In this document: one piece after another, positions 1,132 through 55,600 of the stretch
How the letters are laid out: each line of letters begins with the position of its first letter
How positions within the stretch are numbered: the first letter of the stretch is position 1
Source: Patescibacteria group bacterium
GTDB lineage: Bacteria; Patescibacteriota; Patescibacteriia; Magasanikbacterales; GWA2-37-8
Direction of reading: 5' to 3'
DNA length: 62,457 bases
NCBI GenBank assembly: GCA_041651015.1
Contig: JBAZKA010000006.1
Coordinates: 1 to 62,457 of the forward strand
Made by a program: the position numbers and the translations under genes
Notes under the pieces: model-generated
What the model was told of the DNA's origin: nothing
The model's input: only the letters and a program-made list of their open reading frames with translations
Databases searched by the model: none

Positions 1132-1140
1132 TGTTGTTGA
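106..1140 (+). CDS. DDE (rve/integrase-core) transposase, IS481-family-like
   Basis: N-terminal HTH region (GKSTFYKWF). Catalytic-core motifs HIDTV, HTDNGSEF and NERFNRTFRDEF, then the tail RPHGSLNYLTP. The ORF ends 9 nt past the right inverted repeat. Confidence 0.85.
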   Translation: MVYEQYRRAKKDGRSMSKYDRWREISKAIKLSKEALCRLEWVIFYETKAEKDAAMVCRHFGVGKSTFYKWFNLFKEYNLRSLETKSRRPKAVRSRAATPLKDERVIRIRKQYPYFGKKKIAVLYQRQYGEPVTEWYVQRVIEQFHLYAKKKKKQYIRPKTGVVKKRITECEKQPITGFLIHIDTVVLHLGGVKRYVVTGLDEHSKIAYARMYTNHGSGAAKDFFQRLYYLMEEKIKHVHTDNGSEFHKHFDNALGALSLTHWWSRSHTPKDNPSNERFNRTFRDEFLSWGNFHPDVDVFNKKLTDWLVEYNAVRPHGSLNYLTPLQFAEKTMHLSTMWSSCTCC

Positions 1141-3802: not shown

Positions 3803-3970
3803 ATGGCAGCAAGATTATTGGTGGGACTTGAGCTGTTGAGTACGCGAAATTGCTCACGGCCTGCTTGATTTGCCGGCCGAGCAGATTATCCGCGAGGCGC
3901 TTAAGAGGTTGGGGAGATAATCTAAAATAAGCGAAAAGACGCCAGAACAGCGTCTTTTTTGTACTTACTA

Positions 3971-28414: not shown

Positions 28415-28418
28415 GATA

Positions 28419-28447
28419 TTGACAAAATTTCGTTTTTCTTATATAAT
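28419..28447 (+). promoter_or_regulatory. sigma-70-type promoter (TTGACA-17-TATAAT) for the tRNA-Gly/tRNA-fMet operon
   Basis: TTGACAAAATTTCGTTTTTCTTATATAAT. Confidence 0.6.
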
Positions 28448-28453
28448 CTAACC

Positions 28454-28544
28454 CAGAGTAAATAGATTTCGCGGGTATACTAAGGTATACCCGCTCATTC
28501 GCGGAAAATGTCAAAATAAATTTTGCCATTTTGCCGCTCATTTC
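28454..28544 (+). promoter_or_regulatory. structured 5' leader of tRNA-Gly(GCC), including an acceptor-stem-like minihelix
   Basis: GCGGGTATAC-TAAG-GTATACCCGCTCA (tRNA 5' and 3' acceptor strands joined). Also AAAATGTCAAAA-TAAA-TTTTGCCATTTT. CCGCTCATTTC lies directly before the tRNA. Confidence 0.4.
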
Positions 28545-28616
28545 GCGGGTATAGTACAACGGTTAGTATACGTCCTTGCCAAGGATGAGATGGCGGTTCG
28601 ATTCCGCTTACCCGCT
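28545..28616 (+). tRNA. tRNA-Gly(GCC), no encoded CCA
   Basis: Manual cloverleaf: acceptor GCGGGUA/UACCCGC, anticodon arm CGUCC-UUGCCAA-GGAUG, T arm GGCGG-UUCGAUU-CCGCU. Confidence 0.85.
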
Positions 28617-28660
28617 CAAGACGACCCATAATTAAGATATGGGTCGCGCTATACATATAT

Positions 28661-28733
28661 AGCGGGGTAGAGCAATTGGCAGCTCGTCGGGCCCATAACC
28701 CGAAGGTTCCCGGTTCAAGTCCGGGCCCCGCAA
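28661..28733 (+). tRNA. initiator tRNA-fMet(CAU), no encoded CCA
   Basis: Nearly identical to the E. coli tRNA-fMet core (GCUCGUCGGGC-C-CAUAACCCGAAGG). Has the three G-C pairs in the anticodon stem and an unpaired 1:72 (A:A). Confidence 0.8.
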
Positions 28734-28734
28734 C

Positions 28735-28770
28735 AAAAGAGTTCAATTATAATAATTGAACTTTTGTTTT
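28735..28770 (+). terminator. rho-independent terminator
   Basis: AAAAGAGTTCAATT-loop-AATTGAACTTTT followed by a T-run. Confidence 0.65.
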
Positions 28771-28818
28771 ATTGGGGATATACTAAGTGGATATAATAAT
28801 TTTTTAAAGTAATGTAGT

Positions 28819-29946
28819 ATGTCAACTAAAGAATTCTTTAATGATCAAAGTGACGGCACTGCCGTAAAGATAAACTTTTATGAAGATTACATAGAGAGTT
28901 ATCTATTCAAGATATTATTATCTTTTGGTAGTTGTATGATCGCAGACTTATTCTGTGGACCGGGCAAAAATGGCGATAAAGATGGAAGCCCGTTAATTTT
29001 GCTTAAAAAAGCAACGGAAGTTTTAAAAGACGAGAAATTTAGTAACAGTGTAAAATCATCCTCGGAAATTATCGTTATTTTTAATGACATTAATAAAGAA
29101 AATATTAATAAGTTAAAAAGTGAGTTATCAGCCATAAGTCTTCCGGGAAATATAAAAATAATTGAACCGCAGAATAATAAATTTAGTGATATCGCCGCAG
29201 AAATTGTTAAGCTTAATATTTCAATGCCCAAATTTTTTTTCTTAGACCCGTTTACATATGGCGACATTCAGCTGTCTGAGATCAAGCAATTAATGGATAT
29301 AAATTGTTCCGAAGTGATGTTATTTATGCCTACATTCTTGGCTTATCGTTTTGCGACGTCAATTAAGAACCCGCAAAAATTGATAAGTTTTTTAAATAAT
29401 TTTACCGACAAAGGAGTTTATGATTATGAAGATATATATGATTTTGTTAATTCAATTAAACGAAAAATTAAGATGGAGCTTGGTTTAAAATTTGTGCAGG
29501 ATGCTCTAATTGATGTCGGCAAAAATAAAAATTCACTTTTTTTATTAACAAAAAACACGAAAGGCGCCATGCTTTTTAATAATCTTTTTTGGAAGGAGTC
29601 TTATGACGGTAAATCATTAAATGTTTCTGAAATTAAACACAATGAAAAAGAACCGAGATTATTTTCTAAAGATGTTCTGCCAACGGCCGAACTTGAAGAA
29701 CGCGTTCTTAACTTTCAGACAAAGGTCATTGATGAATTAAAGAAGAAGCGCAAGATGTGTAATACGGAAGTAATAGAATTTACAGTCGTCGAGGGTTTTA
29801 AGCCGAAACACGCGAACGACGTTCTTATAAAATTAAAAAAAGAAAATAAAATTAGAGTAAATTATTTTAGTGCCTTAAAAGTTAAGGGTTTTTATGTATC
29901 TGAAAAGATGTTCGATCAGAAATTGTGTGAAATAGTATTTTTATAG
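28819..29946 (+). CDS. TcmP-like (three-Cys-motif partner) protein
   Basis: N-terminus ...KINFYEDYIESYLFKIL...IADLFCGPGKNGDKDGSPLILL resembles the TcmP family as I recall it. Paired with the atypical radical-SAM-like gene. Visibly AT-rich. Confidence 0.5.
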   Translation: MSTKEFFNDQSDGTAVKINFYEDYIESYLFKILLSFGSCMIADLFCGPGKNGDKDGSPLILLKKATEVLKDEKFSNSVKSSSEIIVIFNDINKENINKLKSELSAISLPGNIKIIEPQNNKFSDIAAEIVKLNISMPKFFFLDPFTYGDIQLSEIKQLMDINCSEVMLFMPTFLAYRFATSIKNPQKLISFLNNFTDKGVYDYEDIYDFVNSIKRKIKMELGLKFVQDALIDVGKNKNSLFLLTKNTKGAMLFNNLFWKESYDGKSLNVSEIKHNEKEPRLFSKDVLPTAELEERVLNFQTKVIDELKKKRKMCNTEVIEFTVVEGFKPKHANDVLIKLKKENKIRVNYFSALKVKGFYVSEKMFDQKLCEIVFL

Positions 29947-29962
29947 TATAATTACTATATAG

Positions 29963-30814
29963 ATGTTTATGCTTACCATAAAGCGGAAATCCCTACTTTA
30001 TAAAAGCGGTGTTGAATACGCTGATTTTTGCGTTAATCATGTTGAGGGGTGTGCCCACGGTTGCCGGTTTCCTTGCTACGCCATGATGATGAAAAAACGC
30101 TGCGGCATTATCAAAGATTATAAAGATTGGATAAAACCAAAATTAGTGAGTAACGCGTTGGAATTACTGGATAAAGAAATACCCAAATACAAGGATAAAA
30201 TTAAATTTGTCCATCTTTGTTTTACCACTGATCCTTTTATGTATGAGTATCCGGAAGTCAGCGATTTAAGTTTAAAAATCATTGAACGATTTAATAAGGA
30301 TAACATACGCCTAACCGTGTTGACGAAAGGGGTTTATCCGAAAGATTTAGCCGACGGCGAAAAGTATGGAAAAAGGAACGAATATGGTATTACTTTGGTT
30401 TCGTTGAGCGACAAATTTAAAAGAGACTTCGAACCGTTTACTGCATCGTACAGAGAACGAATAAAATCATTAAAATATTTGCATGATAAGGGTTTAAAAA
30501 CATGGATTAGTATGGAGCCGTATCCGACGCCGAATATAGTTTGGCAGGATCTAAATAAAATATTAAAAGAGGTTAGTTTTGTTGATAAAATTATTTTTGG
30601 TAAGTTAAATTACAACGTTGACGCGTCACAGTCCGTTTTTAGGGCCAGTAAAGAATTTTATGATGAGCAGGCGAACATTGTCATAGATTTTTGCAAGGAA
30701 CGAGGTATAGAATATCATATTAAATTTGGCACGCAAAAAAAAGATAGTAAAAAAACCGACAAGATATTTGTTCGTGACGCTACGTCCGTTAGAAGAATTG
30801 CTTACGCAATTTAG
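29963..30814 (+). CDS. radical-SAM-like protein (SplB/DNA-photolyase-like fold) with a CxxxCxxxC motif
   Basis: VEGCAHGCRFPCYAM in place of the canonical CxxxCxxC. Confidence 0.6.
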   Translation: MFMLTIKRKSLLYKSGVEYADFCVNHVEGCAHGCRFPCYAMMMKKRCGIIKDYKDWIKPKLVSNALELLDKEIPKYKDKIKFVHLCFTTDPFMYEYPEVSDLSLKIIERFNKDNIRLTVLTKGVYPKDLADGEKYGKRNEYGITLVSLSDKFKRDFEPFTASYRERIKSLKYLHDKGLKTWISMEPYPTPNIVWQDLNKILKEVSFVDKIIFGKLNYNVDASQSVFRASKEFYDEQANIVIDFCKERGIEYHIKFGTQKKDSKKTDKIFVRDATSVRRIAYAI

Positions 30815-39958: not shown

Positions 39959-42070
39959 ATGTTCAAGAAAATAAAAAAGCGCGACGGACGCTTGGAAGAT
40001 TTTGACGCCAAGAAAATAATCAAAGCCATCACCAAGGCCGGCGAGGCCACCGGTGAGTTTGGCGAGAAAGAAGCCGAGCGTTTGGCCGCCAGAGCATTGG
40101 CCATGGCCGGTGATCTTTTGAATGAAGAAGCTCCGACCGTGGAACAGTTGCAAGATATTGTGGAAGAGGCTTTGCTTTCTTCGTCATACAAAAAAACGGC
40201 CAAGGCTTACATCATTTACCGCGACCAGCATAATCAATTGCGCGAATTGAACAACAAAGCCAGCGTCACTTTGGTGGACCAATATTTGGATCAATTAGAT
40301 TGGCAGGTCAACGAAAATTCCAACATGACTTTTTCGTTGCAAGGCCTCAACAATTATATTTCATCCGAAATCAGCAAGGTCTATTGGTTGAACAAAATTT
40401 ACCCCAAGGAAATAAAAGAAGCGTATTTATCCGGTGATTTTCATTTGCATGATTTAAACATTTTGTCCGTGTATTGCGTGGGTTGGGATTTGCATGATTT
40501 GCTAATGGAAGGATTCCGCGGTGTGCCGGGGAAGATTGAGTGCAAACCGCCGAAACATTTGCGCAGCGCCTTGGGTCAAGTGGTGAATTTTTTCTACACT
40601 TTGCAAGGCGAAGCAGCAGGCGCGCAAGCCTTTTCCAATTTTGATACTTTGCTCGCGCCATTCATCCGTTATGATGGGTTGGATTACGAAGGCACCAAGC
40701 AGGCCTTGCAGGAATTTATGTTCAACATGAATGTGCCGACTCGCGTTGGCTTTCAGACGCCGTTTACGAATGTCACCTTGGACATGGAAGTGCCGAGTTA
40801 TTACAAAGATCAACCGGTCATCTCCGGCGGAAAACCGCAAAAAGAAACTTACGGCGAATTTCAAACCGAGATGGACATGTTTAACAAAGCATTTTTTGAA
40901 GTGATGATGAACGGAGACGCTAAAGGCCGCGTCTTTACATTCCCGATTCCGACCTACAACATTACCAAGGGATTTAATTGGGACAACCCTCGCGTTCAGC
41001 CGTTGTGGGAAATAACGGCCAAATACGGCATTCCGTATTTTTCCAACTTTGTTAATTCAGACATGAGTCCCGAAGACGCGCGTTCCATGTGTTGCCGTCT
41101 GCGCATTGACAATCGCCAATTGGAAAAACGCGGCGGCGGTTTGTTTGGCGCCAATCCTTTGACCGGTTCCATTGGAGTAGTGACTTTAAATCTGCCACGC
41201 CTTGGCTACACTTCAAAAACCGAAGAAGAGTTTTTGGAAAAACTTTCCAAACTCATGAATTTGGCCAAGGAAAGTTTGGAAATCAAACGCAAGGTTTTGG
41301 AAAATTTCACCGAGAAAAATCTTTATCCGTATTCCAAATATTATTTGCGCAACATGAAAGAACGCCATGGCGTGTATTGGAAAAATCATTTTAACACCAT
41401 CGGCATCCTCGGCATGAATGAAGCGATTATAAATTTAATGGATGGTGAAAACATTGCCACGGAAAAAGGCCGGGCTTTTGCCGAACGGGTCTTGAATTAT
41501 ATGCGCGATAAAATGGTGGAATTCCAACAAGAAACCGGCAATAACTTCAATTTGGAAGCCACGCCGGCCGAAGGCACGTCGTATCGTTTGGCCCAAAAAG
41601 ACAAAGAAAAATATCCGGAAATCGTCGTGGCCAATGAGGATCTATACAAGAGCGCCAAAGCCGACCCGTTCTATACCAATTCCACGCATCTGCCGGTCAA
41701 TTATACGGATGATATTTTTGAAGCCTTGGATTTGCAGGACCCTCTGCAAACCAAATACACCGGCGGTACGGTCATGCATTTGTTTGTCGGTGAAAAAATT
41801 ACCGACCCATCCGCGGTAAAAAATATGGTCAAGAAAATTTGCGAAACATATCATTTGCCGTATTTCACAATTTCGCCGACCTTTAGCGTTTGCCCGACTC
41901 ACGGCTACATCGCCGGCGAGCATTATAAATGTCCGGAGTGCGAGGCCAAATGTGAAGTTTATTCCCGCGTAGTCGGCTATCTGCGTCCGGTGGACCAGTG
42001 GAACAAGGGCAAGCGCGCCGAATTCCAAATGCGTAAAACATACAAAACCGTAATGCCGCTTGACGTATGA
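39959..42070 (+). CDS. nrdD: anaerobic (class III) ribonucleoside-triphosphate reductase
   Basis: N-terminal ATP-cone (KIKKRDGRLEDFDAKKIIKAI). C-terminal Zn ribbon CPECEAKC and glycyl-radical region SRVVGYLRP. Confidence 0.95.
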   Translation: MFKKIKKRDGRLEDFDAKKIIKAITKAGEATGEFGEKEAERLAARALAMAGDLLNEEAPTVEQLQDIVEEALLSSSYKKTAKAYIIYRDQHNQLRELNNKASVTLVDQYLDQLDWQVNENSNMTFSLQGLNNYISSEISKVYWLNKIYPKEIKEAYLSGDFHLHDLNILSVYCVGWDLHDLLMEGFRGVPGKIECKPPKHLRSALGQVVNFFYTLQGEAAGAQAFSNFDTLLAPFIRYDGLDYEGTKQALQEFMFNMNVPTRVGFQTPFTNVTLDMEVPSYYKDQPVISGGKPQKETYGEFQTEMDMFNKAFFEVMMNGDAKGRVFTFPIPTYNITKGFNWDNPRVQPLWEITAKYGIPYFSNFVNSDMSPEDARSMCCRLRIDNRQLEKRGGGLFGANPLTGSIGVVTLNLPRLGYTSKTEEEFLEKLSKLMNLAKESLEIKRKVLENFTEKNLYPYSKYYLRNMKERHGVYWKNHFNTIGILGMNEAIINLMDGENIATEKGRAFAERVLNYMRDKMVEFQQETGNNFNLEATPAEGTSYRLAQKDKEKYPEIVVANEDLYKSAKADPFYTNSTHLPVNYTDDIFEALDLQDPLQTKYTGGTVMHLFVGEKITDPSAVKNMVKKICETYHLPYFTISPTFSVCPTHGYIAGEHYKCPECEAKCEVYSRVVGYLRPVDQWNKGKRAEFQMRKTYKTVMPLDV

Positions 42071-42759
42071 TCTTCGGTGGGTGGCAAAAATTTTCCATGA
42101 TAGATTTTCCGGCGCGGACTTCAGCCATTCTCTTTACCCAAGGCTGTCCGTTCCGCTGTCCGTTCTGTCATAATCCCGAATTGCTCAATGCCGCGCAAGG
42201 CATGTTCGCGCCAATCACCGAAGAAGAAATTTTGGAATTTTTACAAACGCGCCGAGGCAAGCTGGACGGCGTGGTCATCACCGGCGGTGAGCCGACTTTG
42301 CATCATGATTTGATTGACTTCATCCGCCGGCTCAAAGAAATGGAATTCGCGGTGAAACTGGATACCAATGGTAGTAATCCGGAAATGTTGGAGCGGATTA
42401 TCAGGAATGATTTGTTGGATTATATTGCCATGGATTACAAAGCGCCTTTGGAGAAATACCAAACGCATACCAATTCATCAATCATGTCCGAGCATATTCG
42501 TGAAAGCGCGAGGATGATAAAAGAATCGGGCGTTGATTACGAATTTAGAACGACTGTGGTGCGCGAGCAATTATCACCCGAAGACATAATGCAGATCGGC
42601 CAAGAAATTCAAGGCGCAAAAAAATACGTCTTGCAAAAATTCTTGCCGGGCAAAACATTGAACCCGGATTATGCGAATATGACCACCTATGAAGACCATG
42701 AGTTTGAACAATTTTGTTTGCAATTAAAACCGTTTGTCGCGCAGTGCCTGTGGCGATAA
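42067..42759 (+). CDS. nrdG: anaerobic RNR activating radical-SAM enzyme
   Basis: GCPFRCPFCHNPEL cluster motif. 4-nt overlap with nrdD. Confidence 0.9.
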   Translation: MIFGGWQKFSMIDFPARTSAILFTQGCPFRCPFCHNPELLNAAQGMFAPITEEEILEFLQTRRGKLDGVVITGGEPTLHHDLIDFIRRLKEMEFAVKLDTNGSNPEMLERIIRNDLLDYIAMDYKAPLEKYQTHTNSSIMSEHIRESARMIKESGVDYEFRTTVVREQLSPEDIMQIGQEIQGAKKYVLQKFLPGKTLNPDYANMTTYEDHEFEQFCLQLKPFVAQCLWR

Positions 42760-43987: not shown

Positions 43988-45781
43988 ATGAAGAAACTTG
44001 ATTCCCGAGGAGTGATGATCATTGAGGTGATTGTGGCAATCGCCGTTTTTGTAGTTTTTGCAATTGGTGTATATGAGGGGATTAGGTATTTATATAAAAT
44101 AGTTTTCCTATCGCGTTTGCGTATTATTGAAACATCAATTCTCGCCGAGCGAATGGAAATAATTCGCAATGTGCCATACGCAAGCGTCGGCATTGTCGGC
44201 GGTGTGCCGTCCGGAGTTTTTTCTCACGCCACCACGACCGTGCGCAATGGAATTAATTTTACCCTGACGACGTATATCCGAAATGTTGATGACGCGTATG
44301 ATGGTATGGCCACCGGCACCGCTGTCAAAGATACTTCGCCGGCTGATTATAAATTAGTTCAATTGGAAATTATTGCTCAAAATTCCATTCAAGCCAAAGC
44401 TGTTTCGCTCACCACTATTGTCGCGCCAAAAGGTTTAGAAGGAGCTTCAAATAATGGCTCGCTTTTTATCAATGTTTTTGACGCCAATGGTTTGGCCGTA
44501 GTTGGGGCTAATGTTCATGTGGTAAATTCATCAACCAATCCGGCGACTGTGATTGATGATGTCACGGATAATGATGGCATGCTTCGTATCATTGATGTTC
44601 CGACCGGCACGCAAAAATATTTAATTCAGGTGTCAAAGGCCGGATATTCGGCGGATTACAGCGTCAGCACGACCGCGAGTAATCCGTCGCCGACCAAACC
44701 GTATTCCACCGTGGTCAAACAAACCGTTACGGATATTAGTTTTTCCATAGATTTGACGGGTGCGATTAGCCTGAATACGATTTACGATAATTGCGCGATA
44801 GCGCCGAACATCTCGTGGAACTTGCGTGGTGCCAAAAAGATTGGCAACTCCCCGATTGTTTATAAAAATGATGTAGTTTACAACAGCGGTTCGTCGGCTG
44901 TGAACGCTTTGAGCAACGTGGAATGGGATACGTATTATTTGCTTGGTACCACCACGGCTTATTCGGTCGGCGGCACCATCCCAATTTCTCCGTTTTATTT
45001 GTCACCCGGGCAAACGCAAACAGCGTATGTGATTATTCAACCGCGCACCACCAATAATTTATTGGTGAAAATTTTAGATAATTCCACTAATTTGCCGATT
45101 TCCAGTTCAAGTATCCGTCTGGTGGGGGCGGGCTATGATAAAACTCTAATTACCGACCTTGGTTATTCCGCGCAGACCGATTGGTCCGGCGGTTCCGGGC
45201 AAGTGGATTATAGCGACACGGCCAAATACGCGAGTGACGATGGTAATATTGATGCGACTTTGGTCGCCGGAGATTTGAAATTAAAAATTGCGGCCGGAAA
45301 ATATATGCCGAGTGGTTGGTTGGAATCGTCAACTTTTGATCTTGGTTCCTCGGTTGATTTTAGAAATTTGGTTTTTACTCCCATTAGCCAGCCGATACAA
45401 ACCGGCGCGGATTCAGTATTGGCGCAACTGGCCACTTCTAATAGCAGCACGCCGGCTTCGTGGGATTATTACGGTCCGGACGGTACGAGCGCCACATATT
45501 ATTCGCCGACCAGCACTGAGATTAACAGTATCCACGACGGGCAAAGATATATGCGCTATAAAATATTTTTATCCACGGCCAGTACCAGCTACACACCGAC
45601 ATTTTCCGAACTTTCGGTCACCTACACCAACGGTTGTATGCCGCCCGGCCAGGTATTTTTTGACGATGTCGCTTCCTCAACTTACACCTACACGATTTCG
45701 CGCAACGGTTATCTGACAGTCACCGGCACGGTCGCGACCGGAGGGCAAGCGGAATTAACCGCAAGATTAATTGTTAATTGA
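43988..45781 (+). CDS. large type IV pilin-like protein (prepilin-type N-terminus plus carboxypeptidase-regulatory-like domain)
   Basis: SRG/VMIIEVIVAIAVFVV with Glu at +5. VHVVNSSTNPATVIDDVTDNDGMLRIIDVPTGTQKYLIQVSKAGY. Confidence 0.7.
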   Translation: MKKLDSRGVMIIEVIVAIAVFVVFAIGVYEGIRYLYKIVFLSRLRIIETSILAERMEIIRNVPYASVGIVGGVPSGVFSHATTTVRNGINFTLTTYIRNVDDAYDGMATGTAVKDTSPADYKLVQLEIIAQNSIQAKAVSLTTIVAPKGLEGASNNGSLFINVFDANGLAVVGANVHVVNSSTNPATVIDDVTDNDGMLRIIDVPTGTQKYLIQVSKAGYSADYSVSTTASNPSPTKPYSTVVKQTVTDISFSIDLTGAISLNTIYDNCAIAPNISWNLRGAKKIGNSPIVYKNDVVYNSGSSAVNALSNVEWDTYYLLGTTTAYSVGGTIPISPFYLSPGQTQTAYVIIQPRTTNNLLVKILDNSTNLPISSSSIRLVGAGYDKTLITDLGYSAQTDWSGGSGQVDYSDTAKYASDDGNIDATLVAGDLKLKIAAGKYMPSGWLESSTFDLGSSVDFRNLVFTPISQPIQTGADSVLAQLATSNSSTPASWDYYGPDGTSATYYSPTSTEINSIHDGQRYMRYKIFLSTASTSYTPTFSELSVTYTNGCMPPGQVFFDDVASSTYTYTISRNGYLTVTGTVATGGQAELTARLIVN

Positions 45782-45783
45782 TT

Positions 45784-46392
45784 ATGAAAGCGATAAATCG
45801 CCGCGGAATTTCACTGATTGAAACCATGGTGGCCGTGGCCTTAACCGCGGTTTTTGTCGTCGGCATCGCTTCTTTGTTCACCACCAGCATCCAGTCGCGG
45901 AAAATTATTTGGGAACAATTATCCACTCAAGAAGAAGGACGAAAGATCGTGCAAGATTTTGCCACTGAAGTTCGCGGCGCTTGTTATTCCGGCACCGGTG
46001 CTTATCCTTTGGAAATTGCCACCAGTACTGAAGTGGCCTTTTTTTCCAATATAGATACTGATAACGCGATTGAGAGAATTCATTACAAGTTGGTTGGCAC
46101 GTTTCTAAACAAAAGTATTATTAAACCTGCCGGCGACCCGCCATCTTACGTCACCACTACTGAAACGTTTATCACCATGGTGCATGATGTCGTGTACGAG
46201 ACCAGCACTCCGATTTTTACTTACTATCCGGCGACTTACGACGGCACCGGCAGTGCCATGACTTCCACGATATTCAAACCGTATGTCCGAATGATTGGGA
46301 TTAAATTACAACTGGAAGAGCGGCCGAATTTTTCGCCGACTCCTTTTAACATTGAATCAAAAGTTTTGATGAGAAATTTGAAAGATAATTAA
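45784..46392 (+). CDS. type IV minor pilin/pseudopilin
   Basis: RRG/ISLIETMVAVALTAVFVV prepilin cleavage/methylation motif with Glu at +5. ATG start at 45784. Confidence 0.7.
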   Translation: MKAINRRGISLIETMVAVALTAVFVVGIASLFTTSIQSRKIIWEQLSTQEEGRKIVQDFATEVRGACYSGTGAYPLEIATSTEVAFFSNIDTDNAIERIHYKLVGTFLNKSIIKPAGDPPSYVTTTETFITMVHDVVYETSTPIFTYYPATYDGTGSAMTSTIFKPYVRMIGIKLQLEERPNFSPTPFNIESKVLMRNLKDN

Positions 46393-46394
46393 CT

Positions 46395-47771
46395 ATGAAA
46401 TTACCACGCGGACTAAAAAATAATCTTGATAATCGCGGCAATATATTGCTGGTCGCGACCATGTTTGGCTTACTCGCGTTTTCATTCACGGTCGCGGCTA
46501 TTTCCAATTATGCTTTAAGCGAGAACCGCGCTTCAGTTTATAAGCATAATCGCGAACGCGCTTTTCAAATTTCTGAAGCCGGTACTAATTATTATCGTTG
46601 GCATTTAGCGCACAACAACACTGATTATAAAGACGGCACTTCCTCCACCGGTCCGTATTATCATGATTTTGAAGACAAAGACGGAAATGTGATCGGTCGT
46701 TATGCTTTGACCGTCACCCAACCGCCGACCGGCACGACTGTAGTGACGATTGACTCGCAAGGTTGGCTTTTGTCCCAAGAAAACAGCAAAAGAAATATTA
46801 AAATCCAAGTCGGTTTTCCCTCGCTCACAGATTATTCATTTTTAACCAATTCGCAAATTTGGATCGGCAACACTGAATCAACACACGGAAAATTTCAATC
46901 CAATGACGGAGTGCATTTTGATGGCGTGTGCGATGCGCCGGTAATGAGCGCGGTACCCACTTTTTATTGCGATTCATCAATCGGTTGCTCAGGGAAACAA
47001 AACGGAGTTTTTGGCAGCGGCGGTCCGTCACAATTTTTTATTTATCCAATGCCATCAAAAGATTTTTCCGCGGTGACAGCTAAACTTTCCACCATCAAAA
47101 CAAACGCCGGAATTTCTTTATCCAGTTCCGGCGCCTATGGTTGGTATTTAAAATTTTTATCCAGCGGGAAAATATATATCAGTAAAGTGACCGGAGTGAC
47201 CAAGTGTTTGAGCGGTGGTGGTTGGGGTGGTTGGGGTGGTTGGGGTGCAAGCGATTGTTGGGATATTACTTCCACGAGTTCCGGCGCGACCCATGATATG
47301 CCGACTTCAACCTATATTTATGTGGCCGATAATACTTGGGTTGACGGGGTGGTCAAAGGGCGAGTGACTGTGGGCGCGGCTTCGGATACGAAAAATCCCT
47401 CCATAGTTGTTAACGGAAATTTAACCTATGCGGCCAAGGATGGGACAAACGCGATTGGTCTGATTGCCGAGGATGATATTATTGTACCGTATTACTCTCC
47501 GGATAATTTGGAAATTGATGCGGCTATGTTGGCGCAATATGGTAAGGTTTATCGGCCGGAATATAGTAATACAAAAAAAACCATTACGATTTACGGTTCC
47601 ATTTTGACATACGACCAATGGACTTGGTCATATGTGAATTCCAGCAATGTGGTTATTTCCGGTTATATCACCACGACAAATATGTATGATGGAAATTTAA
47701 CTTACAGTCCGCCGCCGGGTTTTCCGGTCGGTTCTGAATATAGTCCAATCAGTTGGGAAGAAACCGATTAA
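46395..47771 (+). CDS. PilX-like pilus-associated protein containing a GGW tandem repeat
   Basis: N-terminal hydrophobic helix NILLVATMFGLLAFSFTVAAI. GGGWGGWGGWG is encoded by a GGTGGTTGG 9-nt repeat at 47214-47247. Confidence 0.55.
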   Translation: MKLPRGLKNNLDNRGNILLVATMFGLLAFSFTVAAISNYALSENRASVYKHNRERAFQISEAGTNYYRWHLAHNNTDYKDGTSSTGPYYHDFEDKDGNVIGRYALTVTQPPTGTTVVTIDSQGWLLSQENSKRNIKIQVGFPSLTDYSFLTNSQIWIGNTESTHGKFQSNDGVHFDGVCDAPVMSAVPTFYCDSSIGCSGKQNGVFGSGGPSQFFIYPMPSKDFSAVTAKLSTIKTNAGISLSSSGAYGWYLKFLSSGKIYISKVTGVTKCLSGGGWGGWGGWGASDCWDITSTSSGATHDMPTSTYIYVADNTWVDGVVKGRVTVGAASDTKNPSIVVNGNLTYAAKDGTNAIGLIAEDDIIVPYYSPDNLEIDAAMLAQYGKVYRPEYSNTKKTITIYGSILTYDQWTWSYVNSSNVVISGYITTTNMYDGNLTYSPPPGFPVGSEYSPISWEETD

Positions 47772-50175: not shown

Positions 50176-51069
50176 ATGAAAAATTTTTCCAAAATAATTT
50201 TATTTGCCGTGATTATCAGTGGTTTGACCGCGGCCAAGGTTGCGTTTGCCTCCAATCTTATCCCCGAGTGTTTGCTCGGTACCACTTTTAGCGCTGAGTG
50301 TGACAACATCAATCAATTCATTATTTTGGGCATCAATGTTGGCACATATATTTTTGGGTTTATCGGCGCGTTGGCGTTGTTGTTTTTTGTCTATGGCGGT
50401 TTTATTTTGATATTATCTCAAGGCAATCAAGAAAAAATCAAGCAAGGCACCGGCGCCATGACGGCGGCCGTTATCGGTTTGGTGATTGCGTTTGGCGCGT
50501 ATGCCCTGATTACATTTTTGGGCAATACCGTCGGGCTCAAAGCGGAAAAAAGTTTGAATTTTGTGGAAACGGCTTGGGCTGGTGACACGACGCCGCAAAG
50601 ATGTACCTTGGCAGAAGGGTGTTATTGTCTGGACGAAGACAGCAATGAGTGTTCGGCGATTATCAACGATGACGATTGTTATGGCACGCTCACAACCGAA
50701 CCGTGTGAAGACAGTTCTGTCGGCACCGGTTCAAACGCGGCCGGAGTAATGACCGAAGAGGTCGGCACAGCCACCGGAGACACTTCGGGCAATATTTCGG
50801 CTTTGAAGCAAGCGGCCATGAGTTTAAATCCAGCTGACATTGGCGAGCCGGCAGATTTATTTGCCCGCGCCATCAACGCGATGACGGCATTTATGGGGTC
50901 AATCGCCTTAATTTTGTATATTTACGCCGGTTTTATTTGGATGTCGGCCGGAGGCGCGGCTGATAAAATTACCAAAGCCAAAAATATTTTAATTTGGACC
51001 ACGCTTGGTGCTGTGGCCATGGGCGCCGGTTATATGATTATTCGCACGGTGTTGGAAAAAATCGGGTGA
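50176..51069 (+). CDS. T4SS-pilin-like (VirB2/TrbC-type) protein with two pilin modules joined by a Cys-rich acidic linker
   Basis: Module 1 is YGGFILILSQGNQEKIKQG. Module 2 is YAGFIWMSAGGAADKITKAK. The linker is CTLAEGCYCLDEDSNECSAIINDDDCYGTLTTEPC. Confidence 0.65.
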   Translation: MKNFSKIILFAVIISGLTAAKVAFASNLIPECLLGTTFSAECDNINQFIILGINVGTYIFGFIGALALLFFVYGGFILILSQGNQEKIKQGTGAMTAAVIGLVIAFGAYALITFLGNTVGLKAEKSLNFVETAWAGDTTPQRCTLAEGCYCLDEDSNECSAIINDDDCYGTLTTEPCEDSSVGTGSNAAGVMTEEVGTATGDTSGNISALKQAAMSLNPADIGEPADLFARAINAMTAFMGSIALILYIYAGFIWMSAGGAADKITKAKNILIWTTLGAVAMGAGYMIIRTVLEKIG

Positions 51070-51084
51070 TATTTTAGTTATATT

Positions 51085-51450
51085 ATGAAAAAAAATTTAT
51101 TATTTATTTGCGCGCTGCTCTCCTTGGGTCTATTTTGTGCTTCACCGGTTTTGGCGGCCACTTCAAGCGATGCCGGCGCAACTGTATCATTGGATAACCC
51201 GCTTAACACGAACACTACCGATCCGGCGCAAATTATTGGTCTTGTTATTAAATCAGTGTTGGGCATTGTCGGCGGCGCGGCTTTGGTAATGGTGGTATGG
51301 GGAGGGTTCCAATGGCTCACTTCAGCCGGCAATCCGGAAAAAGTTAAAAAAGGTTCGTCCACGATGATTTGGTCGGTAATCGGTTTAATTTTGGTGTTGG
51401 GAAGTTATTTATTGGTGCAGAATGTTTTGAATTTTATTACGGGAACATGA
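51085..51450 (+). CDS. T4SS-pilin-like small membrane protein
   Basis: Signal peptide plus WGGFQWLTSAGNPEKVKKG between two hydrophobic helices. Confidence 0.65.
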   Translation: MKKNLLFICALLSLGLFCASPVLAATSSDAGATVSLDNPLNTNTTDPAQIIGLVIKSVLGIVGGAALVMVVWGGFQWLTSAGNPEKVKKGSSTMIWSVIGLILVLGSYLLVQNVLNFITGT

Positions 51451-51548
51451 AATGACAATAAATACAAATATCAGTTGCGGAAAAGTTGATAATAATGTAT
51501 CATTATACATATGAAAAAAAATCAAAAATTGCGAAGGGAGGTGACATT

Positions 51549-51941
51549 ATGAAGAAATTATTATATGGATTAGCCACCTTTGCTTTGATTTTCGGCGGAT
51601 ACATCGGTTTGGCCATCCCGGCTCACGCCGCTGATACCAGTCCGATTGAGGTTGGAGATTTGGGCTTGTCTTATGGCGAAGAAACCGGTCTCGGCACAGC
51701 AGATGTGCGCAGCACAATCGCGTCAATTATCCGTGTGGCCATGGGCCTCTTGGGTATCGTCGCAGTGGTGATTATCCTCATCGGCGGCTTCAAATGGATG
51801 ACGGCCGGCGGTAACGAAGACCAAGTCGGAGAAGCCAAGAAATGGATTTTCTCAGGCGTGATCGGTCTCGTGATCATCTTGTCTGCCTACGCCCTCGCCA
51901 GCTTTATTATCACTCAGCTTGTTCAAGCAACAACAGAATAA
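51549..51941 (+). CDS. T4SS-pilin-like small membrane protein
   Basis: GGGAGGTG SD. IGGFKWMTAGGNEDQVGEAK core. Start set at MKKLLYG. Confidence 0.65.
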   Translation: MKKLLYGLATFALIFGGYIGLAIPAHAADTSPIEVGDLGLSYGEETGLGTADVRSTIASIIRVAMGLLGIVAVVIILIGGFKWMTAGGNEDQVGEAKKWIFSGVIGLVIILSAYALASFIITQLVQATTE

Positions 51942-51946
51942 AAATT

Positions 51947-51991
51947 TTTCTGTCAGGGGGTTCGCGCGCGCAATCCCCTGACAGAAATTTT
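51947..51991 (+). terminator. strong rho-independent terminator inside the pilin-like array
   Basis: TTTCTGTCAGGGG-N15-CCCCTGACAGAAA followed by TTTT. Confidence 0.75.
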
Positions 51992-52029
51992 GGATTGCAT
52001 TTCACCTAAATTGGAATACAGTTCAAAGT

Positions 52030-52410
52030 ATGTTATCAGTAAAAAAAATAATCGTAGGCATTTTATTGGCGATGGCTTTGGCATTGCCGATTTTTGTTTT
52101 AGCCGCAGACAAATATGGCGCAAGCGCCACGGCCGAACAAACCAGTTTGTCGCGCTTGAGCCTTAGTAACAAAACTCCCGAATCGCTCGCCTCGCAAATT
52201 GTCACTATAGTCCTCGGATTTACGGCCACGATTTTTTTTCTAATGGTTTTATATGGCGGTATCACTTGGATGACGGCCATGGGTGCGCCGGACAAAGTAA
52301 ACAAAGCTAAAGATATTTTGATTACCGCCATTCTTGGCATGGTCATTGTGGCCGCGTCATACGCTATCAGCGTGTTTATTTTTAGTAAAATATCGTCAGC
52401 CGGCGCTTAA
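52030..52410 (+). CDS. T4SS-pilin-like small membrane protein
   Basis: YGGITWMTAMGAPDKVNKAK core between two hydrophobic helices. Confidence 0.65.
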   Translation: MLSVKKIIVGILLAMALALPIFVLAADKYGASATAEQTSLSRLSLSNKTPESLASQIVTIVLGFTATIFFLMVLYGGITWMTAMGAPDKVNKAKDILITAILGMVIVAASYAISVFIFSKISSAGA

Positions 52411-52414
52411 GGTT

Positions 52415-53359
52415 ATGAAAAAATTTTTATTGTCTACATTTATTTTTGCCGTTTCATTGGTTGCTCTGCCTTCAATTGTTTTTGGCGCCGGTGATTATGG
52501 TTTGGGTATGGCGGCCACCACCGGCGGTTTGACTTCCTCAACTATCAGCCAAGCGGGCGACATACCGACCATGCTCGGTTATATTATATCAATCGCCTTA
52601 TCACTGGTCGGCGTATTCTTTTTTATTTTGATTTTATACGCGGGAATTATTTGGATGACAGCAGCCGGCGCGGCCGATCGAGTGGAAAGCGCCAAGAAAA
52701 AAATGATGTCCGCGGCCATTGGTCTGGTGATTGTTTTGTCGGCTTATGCCATTGCCAATTTTGTTTTCAGCAATTTACTTCGGGATCAATCGGCGGTGGA
52801 TGCGGATAACTTATCATCTTTCTGCGCCGCTTCACCGGCCGGCACGGTTTGCGCCGCGAATAAAGTTTGCGACGGCAATCAGTGTGTTGAAGAATGTCTG
52901 TATACTTTCAAAGAACACAATGGTTCGTGTATCAACATGGCGTCTGATCCTTGCGCCGGCGTGATTTTAAGCGGCAAATGTTCGGGCGGTAAAAAATGTT
53001 GCGTGCCATCCGCTGATTACGATAATTGGGAAACTTCGGTGCTGACGGACACAAGTGAAACGACGAATTTAGTCAGCGAAGAATCAGGGACCAGTGCGTG
53101 CGAAAAGAAAGCCGGACATTTCTGTGCCACCAAGGCCATCTGCGAGAGTGGAGCTTACAACGGCGCCGGTACCGAGCAAAATGGTTGTGATAGTGGTGAA
53201 GTCTGTTGTAATAATTGTGTTCAACTGGGCGGCAACTGCATTGATAATACTAAATATACATGCGGACCGGATAATGTAAATTTTGAACCCGGTTATTGCC
53301 ACGGCGCGTTTGGCGCGAATAAATTTCAATGTTGTTTAGGTACATACACACTCAAATAA
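52415..53359 (+). CDS. T4SS-pilin-like module fused to a C-terminal region of about 190 aa with 22 Cys
   Basis: YAGIIWMTAAGAADRVESAK core. The tail has two Cys-rich halves, one ending KKCCVPS and the other ending QCCLGTYTLK. Start set at MKKFLLS. Confidence 0.65.
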   Translation: MKKFLLSTFIFAVSLVALPSIVFGAGDYGLGMAATTGGLTSSTISQAGDIPTMLGYIISIALSLVGVFFFILILYAGIIWMTAAGAADRVESAKKKMMSAAIGLVIVLSAYAIANFVFSNLLRDQSAVDADNLSSFCAASPAGTVCAANKVCDGNQCVEECLYTFKEHNGSCINMASDPCAGVILSGKCSGGKKCCVPSADYDNWETSVLTDTSETTNLVSEESGTSACEKKAGHFCATKAICESGAYNGAGTEQNGCDSGEVCCNNCVQLGGNCIDNTKYTCGPDNVNFEPGYCHGAFGANKFQCCLGTYTLK

Positions 53360-53383
53360 ATTGCCAATAATTATTTATTATTT

Positions 53384-53881
53384 ATGAAAAAATTATTACT
53401 TACGTTTATTATAATCAGCGCGCTGATTCCCTTGTCTGCTTTGGCGGCCGACACATTTGGTTCCGGAATGTTGACCGGCTCGGCCGGCAATCTGGGCTTG
53501 CAAAGTGATTTAAACACCGGCGTAGCCGCCGTGATATCCGCGATTCTTGCAGTCACCGGCACGATATTTTTGGTGCTGACAATTGTCGGTGGTATTATTT
53601 GGATGACAGCTTCGGGCAATGATGAAAAAATCAGCCAAGCCAAAAAAATTATTATTGGCGCGGCCGTGGGCTTGGCTGTTTGTTTGTTTGCTTATACAAT
53701 TACCTGGTTTGTGGCCAACAATTTAGGCAACGCTTCATCGGCTGGATCAACGAGCGGCAGCGAGACCACCGGTTGTTGTGTTTGGTCTACAGGTGGTAGT
53801 GACACCAGTCAAGGAACCATGACTGAAAACGCCTGTGATCTGCATGATGGTTCATCATGGAGTTCAGGTGCATCTTGTTGA
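53384..53881 (+). CDS. T4SS-pilin-like protein with a CC...C...W...C C-terminal mini-domain
   Basis: VGGIIWMTASGNDEKISQAK core. Tail GCCVWSTGGSDTSQGTMTENACDLHDGSSWSSGASC. Confidence 0.65.
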   Translation: MKKLLLTFIIISALIPLSALAADTFGSGMLTGSAGNLGLQSDLNTGVAAVISAILAVTGTIFLVLTIVGGIIWMTASGNDEKISQAKKIIIGAAVGLAVCLFAYTITWFVANNLGNASSAGSTSGSETTGCCVWSTGGSDTSQGTMTENACDLHDGSSWSSGASC

Positions 53882-53893
53882 TAATCCAGATAT

Positions 53894-54445
53894 ATGAATA
53901 TTTTTTTTAAAAAATATTTTACTTTGTCTCTCATTGGTTTATTGTTGATGGCGGGATTTTTATTCCCTTTGTCTGCGTCAGCTCAAGGGCTCAAAGATGC
54001 CGGCGCCACTTTGGGCGATATGCAAAATCAAGGTGTGACTCTTTCCGGTGATTTGTCGGGCACGGCCAACACAGTGGTTAAAACAATTTTTTATTTAGTC
54101 GGTACAATTTTTTTAGTCTTGGTGATTTACGGCGGTATTGTTTGGATGAAATCCGCCGGACGTGACGCCGAAGTGGCCCGCGCCAAACGGATTGTCGCCA
54201 CGTCGGTGATTGGCGTGGTCATACTCTTGCTTTCATACGCCATTACGACTTTTGTCATGGGAAGATTGACTGGAAGCTCCACCGGCACGAGCAACGGCTC
54301 GGGAACTCCGGTGGATACATCCTCTTTGGGTTGTTGTTATTCATCCAGTGAATCTGATGACGGGCTAAATCATTTCCCCTCAAGTAAATCCACTTGCGAA
54401 GACAATGGCGGCGCATACTACTGGAGCAGTTCGCAATGTCATTAA
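53894..54445 (+). CDS. T4SS-pilin-like protein with a CC...C...W...C C-terminal mini-domain
   Basis: YGGIVWMKSAGRDAEVARAK core. Tail GCCYSSSESDDGLNHFPSSKSTCEDNGGAYYWSSSQCH. Confidence 0.65.
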   Translation: MNIFFKKYFTLSLIGLLLMAGFLFPLSASAQGLKDAGATLGDMQNQGVTLSGDLSGTANTVVKTIFYLVGTIFLVLVIYGGIVWMKSAGRDAEVARAKRIVATSVIGVVILLLSYAITTFVMGRLTGSSTGTSNGSGTPVDTSSLGCCYSSSESDDGLNHFPSSKSTCEDNGGAYYWSSSQCH

Positions 54446-54540
54446 TTGCTTTATTTTTTTTGAATTTTTAATTTTTTAAAATTAGAAATTAGGATATTTA
54501 TTAAAAATTACAAAATTATAAAAATTAAAAATTTTCATAT

Positions 54541-55155
54541 ATGTCCACCTCAAAAAAATTAATTTTATTTTTCGCCATTGCCTCGGGTGTTATGCTTTTT
54601 ACCACGCTGGTTTTTGCCGCCTCGGTTTCAGCCGCCGACATCGGTTTCGGTTCGGGTGGTATGGCCGCGGATATTGCCAGCAAGGCCGGTTACGACACGG
54701 CGCAAACCAGCACCTCGTTGTCCCAAACAGTCGGCGGAATTATTCGCGCCGTGCTCTCGGTCATCGGGGTTTTATTTTTGGGTTTGACCATTTTCGCCGG
54801 CTTTATGTGGATGACGGCCTCGGGCAACGAAGACAAGGTGACCAAGGCAAAAAGTATTTTGACTTCCTCGGTGATCGGCCTCGTAATCGTGGTTGCGTCT
54901 TATGGCATTACCGCTTTAGTATTTTCTTTTTTCTTTCAAGCCACCGCGCCGGCCACTGATGTAAGCACCGGTAGTGCCGGCGATGGAGAAATGGGTTGTT
55001 GTGTGAGCGAAGACGAATCAAAATGCGGCCAAACAAATACGCGCAGTTCCTGTACAACAAAATCCGGGTGGGGCAATGCCTCGTGGTATGCCGGTGAATC
55101 TTGCACGCCATATATTACCTTGAATACCAATTGTGAAATTCAAAATGATTTATAA
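54541..55155 (+). CDS. T4SS-pilin-like protein with an extended Cys-rich C-terminal mini-domain
   Basis: FAGFMWMTASGNEDKVTKAK core. Tail GCCVSEDESKCGQTNTRSSCTTKSGWGNASWYAGESCTPYITLNTNC. Confidence 0.65.
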   Translation: MSTSKKLILFFAIASGVMLFTTLVFAASVSAADIGFGSGGMAADIASKAGYDTAQTSTSLSQTVGGIIRAVLSVIGVLFLGLTIFAGFMWMTASGNEDKVTKAKSILTSSVIGLVIVVASYGITALVFSFFFQATAPATDVSTGSAGDGEMGCCVSEDESKCGQTNTRSSCTTKSGWGNASWYAGESCTPYITLNTNCEIQNDL

Positions 55156-55177
55156 CCGCTCTGTCAATTAAAATTGT

Positions 55178-55600
55178 ATGAAAAAAATAAAATTACTCGC
55201 CTTGTTCGCGGTATTGGGATTATCTTGTTTGATGCCGTTCGCGGTTTCGGCCGCCGATAGCACTGTGGGCGCGATAGAAAGTAATTTGCAAGCCGCGGCC
55301 GAGACCGGTGCCGGGTTTGCTTCGCCGGTTGATCCGCGTGTGCAAGCGGCAATTTATATTCGCTATGCTTTACAAGTAGTCGGGATTTTGTTTGTCTGTC
55401 TCATGGTTTACGCCGGCTTCCTTTGGATGACGGCCGGCGGTAATGAGGACAATATTGATAAGGCCAAAAAATTAATAATGGCGGCCGTCATCGGGCTTGT
55501 CATTGTTTTGACTTCGTATAGTATCACTTATTTTGTCGCTAAGTTGGTGACCGGCGATGATGATAATTTTTCTTCCAACGACGCCACAATTTTTAAGTAA
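55178..55600 (+). CDS. T4SS-pilin-like small membrane protein
   Basis: YAGFLWMTAGGNEDNIDKAK core. Acidic tail without Cys. Confidence 0.65.
   Translation: MKKIKLLALFAVLGLSCLMPFAVSAADSTVGAIESNLQAAAETGAGFASPVDPRVQAAIYIRYALQVVGILFVCLMVYAGFLWMTAGGNEDNIDKAKKLIMAAVIGLVIVLTSYSITYFVAKLVTGDDDNFSSNDATIFK

Follow-up and report, generated by a model that had tools for sequence, protein, structure and literature searches.

The window analyzed here, a stretch of 62,457 nt (contig JBAZKA010000006.1 of assembly GCA_041651015.1, forward strand, 1 to 62,457; all coordinates below are window positions), comes from an organism in or near Candidatus Magasanikbacteria, within the Patescibacteria or candidate phyla radiation (CPR), as indicated by the record titles of related loci and the source names of homologues. 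It carries ten paralogous genes, p1 to p10, for VirB2-like pilins, and all 10 products scored above the curated gathering cutoff of PF18895, T4SS_pilin (28.3 to 47.1 bits; cutoff, 26.6 bits). Nine of these genes, p1 to p9, lie in tandem on the + strand (50176-55600) with gaps of 4 to 95 bp, and p10 is detached, 2.4 kb downstream. Three adjacent members, p6, p7, and p8, end in a short cysteine-rich tail with two neighboring cysteines after a glycine, which we named the GCC module in this analysis and which is the subject of this report. The three pilins and their modules are as follows (lengths in amino acids [aa]; modules from the translated open reading frames [ORFs]).

53384-53881, + strand: p6, 165 aa; signal peptide, two hydrophobic helices, and a Ser/Thr/Gly linker; PF18895, 35.8 bits
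53771-53878, + strand: 4-Cys GCC module of p6, GCCVWSTGGSDTSQGTMTENACDLHDGSSWSSGASC
53894-54445, + strand: p7, 183-aa pilin; PF18895, 32.3 bits
54329-54442, + strand: 4-Cys GCC module of p7, GCCYSSSESDDGLNHFPSSKSTCEDNGGAYYWSSSQCH
54541-55155, + strand: p8, 204-aa pilin, carrier of the conserved 6-Cys module; PF18895, 35.1 bits
54994-55152, + strand: 6-Cys GCC module of p8, GCCVSEDESKCGQTNTRSSCTTKSGWGNASWYAGESCTPYITLNTNCEIQNDL; cysteines at residues 153, 154, 162, 171, 188, and 198

Each of the three tails is preceded by a linker rich in Ser, Thr, and Gly and ends exactly in the string that a first-pass annotation, made from the sequence alone, had quoted for it; the gathering scores likewise bear out the pilin-like scaffold which that annotation had proposed.

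Framework and conservation of the GCC module

The module comprises approximately 35 to 55 residues and follows the framework G-C1C2-aromatic, x5-14, C3, x8, C4, x11-16 containing Trp, C5, x2-9, C6. The 6-Cys form can thus be written GCC-x5-14-C-x8-C-x11-16-C-x2-9-C; the 4-Cys form lacks C3 and C6 and reads GCC-x14-20-C-x11-15-C, with Trp 3 to 5 residues ahead of the last cysteine. As judged from these patterns, p8 is a full 6-Cys member, and p6 and p7 are 4-Cys members by framework. The first-pass annotation had given the three tails one shared spacing. Its G-CC framework held, whereas the 17 to 20 residues that it took to be variable contain a conserved cysteine in p8, the tail of which has six cysteines, and the 10 to 12 residues that it counted from the next cysteine to Trp or Tyr had to be corrected to 7 to 8 (third cysteine to Trp) for p6 and p7.

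Conservation was assessed in a census of 81 loci, consisting of the window and 80 related loci from a scan of species-representative genomes (labels of the type L001 denote loci other than the window; L082 and L083 are close relatives of the window, L082 being the closest), which together hold 679 ORFs with a pilin core. Tails starting with CC numbered 47, were found in 34 of the 81 loci, and were mainly of the 4-Cys or 6-Cys form. Of 41 modules, 38 had glycine directly before the CC, and 40 had an aromatic residue (Trp in 33) no more than 8 residues ahead of the closing cysteine. Strict regular expressions for the 4-Cys and 6-Cys frameworks yielded 39 matches (19 four-Cys and 20 six-Cys) in the pilin ORFs (126 k residues) versus 0 and 1, respectively, in all other six-frame ORFs of the same loci (716 k residues). 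The GCC module was confined to pilin ORFs within the 1.1 Mb of related loci.

The strongest conservation was observed for p8, which has approximately 25 full-length orthologues (44 to 86% identity). When 26 sequences of this family were aligned (identity down to 36%), G152, C153, C154, C162, C171, and C188 were invariant (26 of 26), the sixth cysteine was also present in 26 of 26 sequences, and W182 was near-invariant, the consensus being MGCC[VY]-x5-6-KC-x-QTA-x4-C-x2-KW-x3-6-WY-x-GESCTPY-x5-C. In the linker in front of the module (54940-54993, residues 134 to 151), Ala134 is invariant and Pro137 nearly so ("APSTDV"), a conservation that could mark a processing or packing site.

A profile hidden Markov model (HMM) of the 6-Cys module, for the construction of which no sequence of the window was used, scored 34.5 bits on the p8 tail (reached by 0 of 1,000 composition-preserving shuffles), 16.2 bits on the p6 tail (1 of 1,000), 13.3 bits on the p7 tail (0 of 1,000), and 5.6 bits on the tail of p10 (46 of 1,000). 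Neither Pfam nor NCBIfam gave a match at E values of up to 10 for five tails of the window, that of p5 among them; the libraries of Pfam and NCBIfam that were searched contain neither the GCC module nor its sister frameworks described below.

Cysteine parity, topology, and predicted fold

Tail cysteines were even in number in 193 and odd in 5 of the 198 tails that contain cysteine (binomial P = 1e-50). Among the 679 pilin ORFs, 481 had no tail cysteine, and the others had 1 (4 ORFs), 2 (38 ORFs), 3 (1 ORF), 4 (39 ORFs), 6 (58 ORFs), 8 (28 ORFs), 10 (10 ORFs), or 12 or more (20 ORFs). Cysteine accounted for 9.1% of the residues of tails, 0.57% of those of pilin cores, and 0.91% of those of other proteins. 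C3 and C6 were always either jointly present or jointly absent, 5-Cys modules did not occur in the census, and the distance from CC to the next cysteine in the 4-Cys form (14 to 20 residues) equals that from C2 to C4 in the 6-Cys form. From this joint occurrence, the matching distance, and the parity, we infer that C3 pairs with C6 and that the two other bonds join C1 and C2 to C4 and C5. Together with the AlphaFold2 model of the tail given below, the parity and the co-occurrence of C3 and C6 lend indirect support to the small disulfide-held module envisaged in the first-pass annotation.

Could the tails merely be low-complexity sequences, rich in Ser, Thr, and Gly, whose cysteines resemble one another by chance? 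The tails of p6 and p7 have little in common beyond the framework, as would be expected of a chance resemblance, but the controls refute this explanation and leave it practically no probability: 39 regular-expression matches in pilins stand against 1 elsewhere, the cysteines are invariant in 26 orthologues, shuffled tails of p6 to p8 scored as high in 0 to 1 of 1,000 cases, and parity is far from random. That the cysteines bind a metal, as a Zn or Fe-S knuckle that might face the cytoplasm, is very improbable. Tails with 4 and 8 cysteines are common, and the organism is probably anaerobic, since it has a gene for NrdD, both of which agree with a metal site; tails with 2 cysteines (38 ORFs) and 6 cysteines (58 ORFs) are, however, as common and unfit for tetrahedral sites, the GCC framework is without CxxC or CxxH pairs, its adjacent cysteines are badly placed for coordinating a metal, the predicted topology favors the outside, and the AlphaFold2 fold is a compact β-sheet without metal.

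Hydropathy gave the same layout for each paralogue: an MKK-type N terminus, a hydrophobic stretch, an AxA site, and then two hydrophobic helices. The loop between the helices is short (consensus, GNEDKVEKAKK), with conserved Lys in three of its columns over all 679 pilin ORFs. The VirB2/TrbC architecture of a signal peptide, two helices, and a short charged loop was found in p6 to p8. A signal peptide combined with two membrane helices, an even number, would place the C terminus outside, so that the tails are predicted to be extracytoplasmic; the internal 6-Cys segment of p1 falls between hairpin 1 and hairpin 2 of that protein and would be on the outer side again. The extracellular C terminus assumed in the first-pass annotation is indirectly supported by both. 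The motif is thus conserved beyond this genome, with co-conserved cysteines and a predicted location outside, where confinement to one genome, independently varying cysteines, or a cytoplasmic C terminus would have spoken against that annotation.

AlphaFold2 predicted full-length p8 (26 sequences) as a helical hairpin with helices at residues 58 to 92 and 97 to 135 and gave its tail a moderate predicted local distance difference test (pLDDT) score of 69 to 79. For the p8 tail alone (24 sequences), the pLDDT was 81 and the predicted template modeling score was 0.63, and the modeled fold was β(5-8)-β(14-18)-α(21-25)-β(34-37)-α(43-49). Foldseek returned nothing at an E value of <1 for the tail model (PDB and BFVD) or for the full-length p8 model (PDB). 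One weak match recurred, between the start of the p8 module (54994-55065) and a hairpin in the luminal iRhom homology domain of iRhom2, GCCVQNDHSGCIQTQRKDC; it was significant neither in hmmsearch against the PDB (E = 0.17) nor in Foldseek (E = 1.6 to 2.5; 23 to 34 aligned columns, 35 to 48% identity, and a root mean square deviation of 1.4 to 2.7 Å) and is a lead, not evidence of homology.

Tail types and their turnover across related arrays

The other pilins of the window vary from tail-less proteins to one with 22 tail cysteines.

50176-51069, + strand: p1, 297 aa; fused double pilin with two PF18895 cores in one ORF (Pfam and local HMM)
50599-50706, + strand: internal 6-Cys segment of p1, RCTLAEGCYCLDEDSNEC..., between the two cores; 2 further cysteines follow the signal peptide
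51085-51450, + strand: p2, 121 aa; short, tail-less pilin; PF18895, 47 bits
51549-51941, + strand: p3, 130 aa; short, tail-less pilin; PF18895, 46 bits
52030-52410, + strand: p4, 126 aa; short pilin, tail-less in the window; PF18895
52415-53359, + strand: p5, 314 aa; pilin with a long cysteine tail; PF18895
52820-53356, + strand: tail of p5, 179 aa, with 22 cysteines in units ending in CC
55178-55600, + strand: p9, 140-aa pilin with a short acidic tail without cysteine; PF18895
57972-58466, + strand: p10, 164 aa; detached pilin; PF18895
58356-58463, + strand: tail of p10, a different 4-Cys framework with spacing 6-11-12

The tail of the detached gene is indeed the different 4-Cys tail that the first-pass annotation had quoted. 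The internal segment of p1 bears a weak resemblance to the GCC HMM (5.7 bits) and is not claimed as a member. For p3, the ATG at 51549 precedes a signal-peptide-like MKKLLYG. PF04956, TrbC/VirB2, was matched by p2 below its cutoff (22.8 versus 27.9 bits; E = 1e-4) and was not matched by p6 to p8; some relatives do carry precomputed matches to both PF18895 and PF04956. Identity to p4 was 26 to 41% among the seven array members aligned, and the array corresponds in its composition to the patescibacterial pilin arrays of 2 to 11 tandem, low-identity genes defined previously (PMC12102498).

Cysteine-bearing tails occurred on approximately 29% of pilin paralogues, and at least one was present in 67 of the 81 loci. 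At least eight cysteine-rich frameworks recurred, the GCC module among them. The second common type has 6 cysteines with CC at its end (near C-x6-C-x5-C-x8-C-x5-CC) and was found on 47 pilins in 33 loci, namely, L001 to L005, L083, and 27 further loci (e.g., the ORF at offset 7073 in L005 and 5750-6253 in L083); its spacing is β-defensin-like, yet these tails are acidic. Other types included a recurring 2-Cys hairpin, C-x-QNPLDP-x-C, and several more with 4 to 48 cysteines. Modules were also combined within one tail: L027 has two 4-Cys units in tandem, and in both L048 and L050, a 6-Cys unit comes after a 4-Cys unit.

Outside the pilins, three tandem GCC modules (independent E values of 5e-4, 1e-9, and 4e-7 with an HMM built from the loci) were identified in P0071, a 215-aa non-pilin that has a signal peptide as well as a sorting signal of the IPTL-CTERM type (TIGR04174, above cutoff), encoded at positions 3969 to 4616 of L081, a 4.8-kb contig of GCA_012974925.1. 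Searching a wide protein set with an HMM of the tail, the check suggested in the first-pass annotation, was successful in that pilins and P0071 were found and of limited use in that only 6 matches, 3 of them pilins, were obtained among 1.84 billion representative proteins, because an HMM of 55 positions lacks the power to chart the family globally. The HMM matches of two repeat proteins, P0070 and the SRCR-like P0072, were rejected as spurious on sequence inspection.

These data bear on the view that the tail is a pro-region which is cut off, the hairpin serving as an export carrier and the peptide being either released (as a signal, a bacteriocin, or a defensin-like product) or discarded. Propilins of the VirB2 family such as RP4 TrbC and Ti VirB2 do lose C-terminal residues before cyclization, processing could take place at the "APSTDV" linker of the p8 family, and the CC-ending sister tail has the cysteine spacing of β-defensins. 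Against release, the cysteine tails are net acidic in 80% of cases (median charge, -3), which sets them apart from membrane-active defensins; they matched no family of toxins or bacteriocins; neither a TraF-like nor any other peptidase was found adjoining the array; and the tandem modules and the cell-anchored IPTL-CTERM protein fit display better. We consider release quite unlikely, and the toxin- or bacteriocin-like peptide mentioned in the first-pass annotation finds no support, given the same charge and the same want of a family match. The acidic tails also ruled out a cationic antimicrobial peptide.

Gene order in the array is common to the window, L001 to L005, L083, and L084. It starts with a double pilin, two short pilins, a variable gene, a 22-Cys pilin, and two variable genes and continues with a 6-Cys GCC pilin, a tail-less pilin, a monogalactosyldiacylglycerol (MGDG) synthase gene, and the detached pilin. 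Within this order, the 22-Cys tail at the p5 position was retained in L001 to L005 and L083 (24 cysteines in L005), and the p8 position has the 6-Cys GCC module in the relatives too. The modules of p6 and p7 were both retained in L082 (82% identical). The p6 position has a 6-Cys CC-ending tail in L001 to L005 and no tail in L083. At the p7 position, a similar 4-Cys GCC tail was found in L002 (GCCMSTENPANITPMSKEACVAKGGAFMWTSSPCK) and a CC-ending tail in L004, and L001, L003, L005, and L083 are tail-less. The p4 position, tail-less in the window, has a 6-Cys CC-ending tail in L083, and the p10 position has the spacing 6-11-11 in L004, L005, and L083 and a 4-Cys GCC module in L001 and L002. Tail diversity arises mainly by swap, gain, and loss of whole modules on conserved scaffolds. 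In L084, a gene for a 117-aa protein matching 23S_rRNA_IVP (PF05635), not present in L083 or the window, lies between the p7 and p8 orthologues (4958-5311).

The ratio of nonsynonymous to synonymous substitution rates (dN/dS), pooled over p6 to p8 for the single genome pair of the window and L082 (dS, 0.7 to 1.6), was 0.18 for the tails, as against 0.08 for the linker and 0.06 for both the helix core and the exposed N-terminal region. Among p8 orthologues, the mean pairwise identity was 0.79 and 0.71 for the two helices and 0.50 for the tail (0.44 excluding cysteines). The tails are thus under purifying selection, with less constraint than the core and no sign of an arms race at single residues. 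Diversifying selection on the tails was rejected on their dN/dS for this pair, and the variable loops of the first-pass annotation, if meant in that sense, were not borne out: the loops of p8 orthologues are 44% identical.

Display on a VirB2-like scaffold and its genomic setting

Classical VirB2, TrbC, and TraA are minimal subunits of approximately 65 to 75 mature residues, the C terminus of which is trimmed or cyclized, not extended, and we know of none with a folded cysteine-rich C-terminal domain. Like p6 to p8, they have a signal peptide and a pair of hydrophobic helices connected by a short loop in which Lys is conserved; as in the array as a whole, the two ends are expected to face outward and the loop inward. 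Within Pfam, the monoderm and Patescibacteria branch is represented by PF18895. Unlike their genes, the window array stands outside any type IV secretion system (T4SS) locus (virB3, virB4, virB6). In the F pilus, both TraA ends are outside, and the loop between the helices is in the lumen (PMC5018250); the filament is 87 Å in diameter, with 5 subunits per 12.1 Å. From this geometry, we calculated a surface of ~660 Å² per subunit, more at a larger radius, so that each subunit would have room for a knob of ~5 kDa held by a linker of 20 residues; tails of greater size, e.g., that of p5, would need a longer reach or low abundance.

Tandem arrays of 2 to 11 divergent VirB2-like pilins are already known to be widespread in Patescibacteria (441 arrays in 383 assemblies; PMC12102498) and are chromosomal, like that of the window, and in Southlakia epibionticum such an array lies inside a T4SS cluster, unlike that of the window, and is essential (PMC10633639). 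Cysteine-rich C-terminal modules are not mentioned in these two reports of arrays and their essentiality or in a third (PMC12857230); the word "cysteine" occurs once in PMC12102498, on VirB1 peptidase domains, and nowhere in PMC10633639 or PMC12857230. Targeted searches of the literature on VirB2-like pilins in the CPR found no cysteine-rich or disulfide-bearing tails, and the statement of the first-pass annotation that such a fusion had not been described for VirB2-type pilins agrees with the literature searched. Extracellular proteins that are large and cysteine-rich have been described from a different CPR lineage (PMC4736985). What is new is the presence of interchangeable cysteine-locked C-terminal modules on the known arrays. 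The same design, a functional C-terminal module grafted via a short linker, is seen in modular type IV pilins such as PilB of S. sanguinis, which have many architectures and are frequent in CPR genomes (PMC8179133). Those pilins, however, have a class III signal peptide and an N-methyl motif and carry large known domains (vWA, lectins), whereas p6 to p8 have a Sec-type signal peptide, no match to N_methyl (PF07963), and cysteine modules of 35 to 55 residues. The resemblance is one of design, not of membership.

We lean, without great assurance, toward the GCC tail being an autonomous, extracytoplasmic, disulfide-locked display module that binds a surface ligand and is carried by a VirB2-like pilin. 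The analysis shows conservation of the module, co-conservation of its cysteines, even cysteine counts, modularity, turnover, and purifying selection; the disulfides, the outside location, the display on a filament, and the binding of a ligand are what we infer. The pilin would be exported via its Sec-type signal peptide, with the two-helix hairpin in the membrane and the tail emerging on the outer face. If subunits polymerize like VirB2 or TraA, the C terminus and its knob would come to lie on the outer surface of the filament, as a head on a flexible Ser/Thr/Gly linker at the outer end of the pilin. Nothing sets the tip apart from the shaft, and the tip position suggested in the first-pass annotation has no support. 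The array would then be a set of display scaffolds with interchangeable heads, whole modules being exchanged, duplicated, gained, and lost. Most probably, a head would serve to bind some surface ligand, either on a partner or host cell or in the envelope of the cell itself; with 3 to 4 conserved aromatic residues in a stable, acidic mini-domain, as would suit a small binding knob, a glycan is a plausible candidate. Hevein/CBM18 glycan binders, of similar size and with adjacent cysteines and conserved aromatic residues, offer a lead only. Compared with these and with defensins, the tails are acidic, not cationic, and gave no Pfam or NCBIfam match at E = 10.

Several points weigh against this reading. 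The tails of p6 and p7 were weakly related to the family (E = 0.06 and 0.5 in a search of all ORFs), so that their membership draws mainly on the framework (G before CC, spacing, and Trp before the last cysteine), and an HMM of the 4-Cys form was too weak for use (P ~0.02). Both tails are absent in the close relative L083 and are therefore dispensable there. Since no significant fold match was found in the PDB or BFVD, a ligand cannot be transferred by homology, and the dN/dS values come from one genome pair with a dS of 0.7 or higher. T4SS machinery (VirB4, VirB6, and others) was not found among the scanned ORFs of the 62-kb window, and the tie of the array to a pilus or secretion apparatus would be by family membership only. 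Nor was a thiol-disulfide oxidoreductase found among the window ORFs scanned, and the genes for the anaerobic ribonucleotide reductase NrdD and its radical-SAM activase (39959-42759) pose a possible difficulty for disulfide formation. To our knowledge, no pilus of PF18895 proteins has yet been seen in any Patescibacterium, and a patescibacterial pilus of VirB2-like pilins is still only a possibility (PMC12857230).

The lack of a demonstrated patescibacterial pilus and the absence of T4SS genes near the array in 62 kb would also be expected if no filament were ever formed and the hairpin were a membrane anchor, with the modules acting at the membrane surface or in the wall space (e.g., on the cell's own peptidoglycan, on an S-layer, or in envelope stability). 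Tails ranging from 2-Cys hairpins to more than 200 aa with 48 cysteines, hard to fit on each subunit of a tight helix, point the same way. We nevertheless hold a pure anchor to be unlikely, as the conserved Lys of the loop and the invariant core residues (G, W, AK, and Y) are those of a polymerizing VirB2-type pilin and not of a generic anchor, and the Southlakia array is inside a T4SS cluster and essential.

A broader form of the display reading is possible but doubtful: the arrays may be devices for combinatorial display, in which a conserved polymerizing scaffold carries disulfide-locked heads of at least eight frameworks, including GCC and those with defensin-like spacing, the filament is decorated with them, and head exchange sets the range of hosts or partners. 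If so, these would be the first known T4SS-type pilins with folded adhesin domains and would offer a molecular handle on the host range of uncultured CPR bacteria. VirB2-type pilins have been seen as minimal, and folded domains grafted onto them would change the view of how T4SS-related filaments recognize their targets. Patescibacteria need contact with host cells, and their pilin arrays have proved essential wherever this was tested; swapped cysteine-locked heads would give a concrete and testable answer, ligand specificity, to the purpose of the many paralogues. As small, stable, expressible domains, the modules might also be used as probes for the hosts of uncultured lineages.

The immediate neighbors of the array are genes for a solute-binding protein, a sugar nucleotidyltransferase, the MGDG synthase, ribosomal protein S15, and polynucleotide phosphorylase. 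Genes of type IV pilus type are present a few genes upstream (43988-47771), with the same neighbors in L083; among these, an N-terminal methylation motif is present in 45778-46392 and a CarboxypepD_reg-like domain in 43988-45781, and no match was obtained for 46395-47771. The rest of the window is a housekeeping region with genes for RuvB, GatB, ThyX, a tryptophanyl- or tyrosyl-tRNA synthetase, elongation factor P, and ribosomal proteins L1 and S15, and it also contains genes for polynucleotide phosphorylase, a P-type ATPase, UvrD, one insertion sequence (IS)-type integrase, and NrdD with its activase. An IS-type transposase (helix-turn-helix and rve integrase core) is encoded at the left end of the window (106-1140). 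The guanine-plus-cytosine content dips to 0.35 at 28001-30000, compared with 0.43 to 0.50 elsewhere in the window; an ORF without a Pfam match (28819-29946, 375 aa) is located there, followed by a gene for a radical SAM protein (29963-30814).

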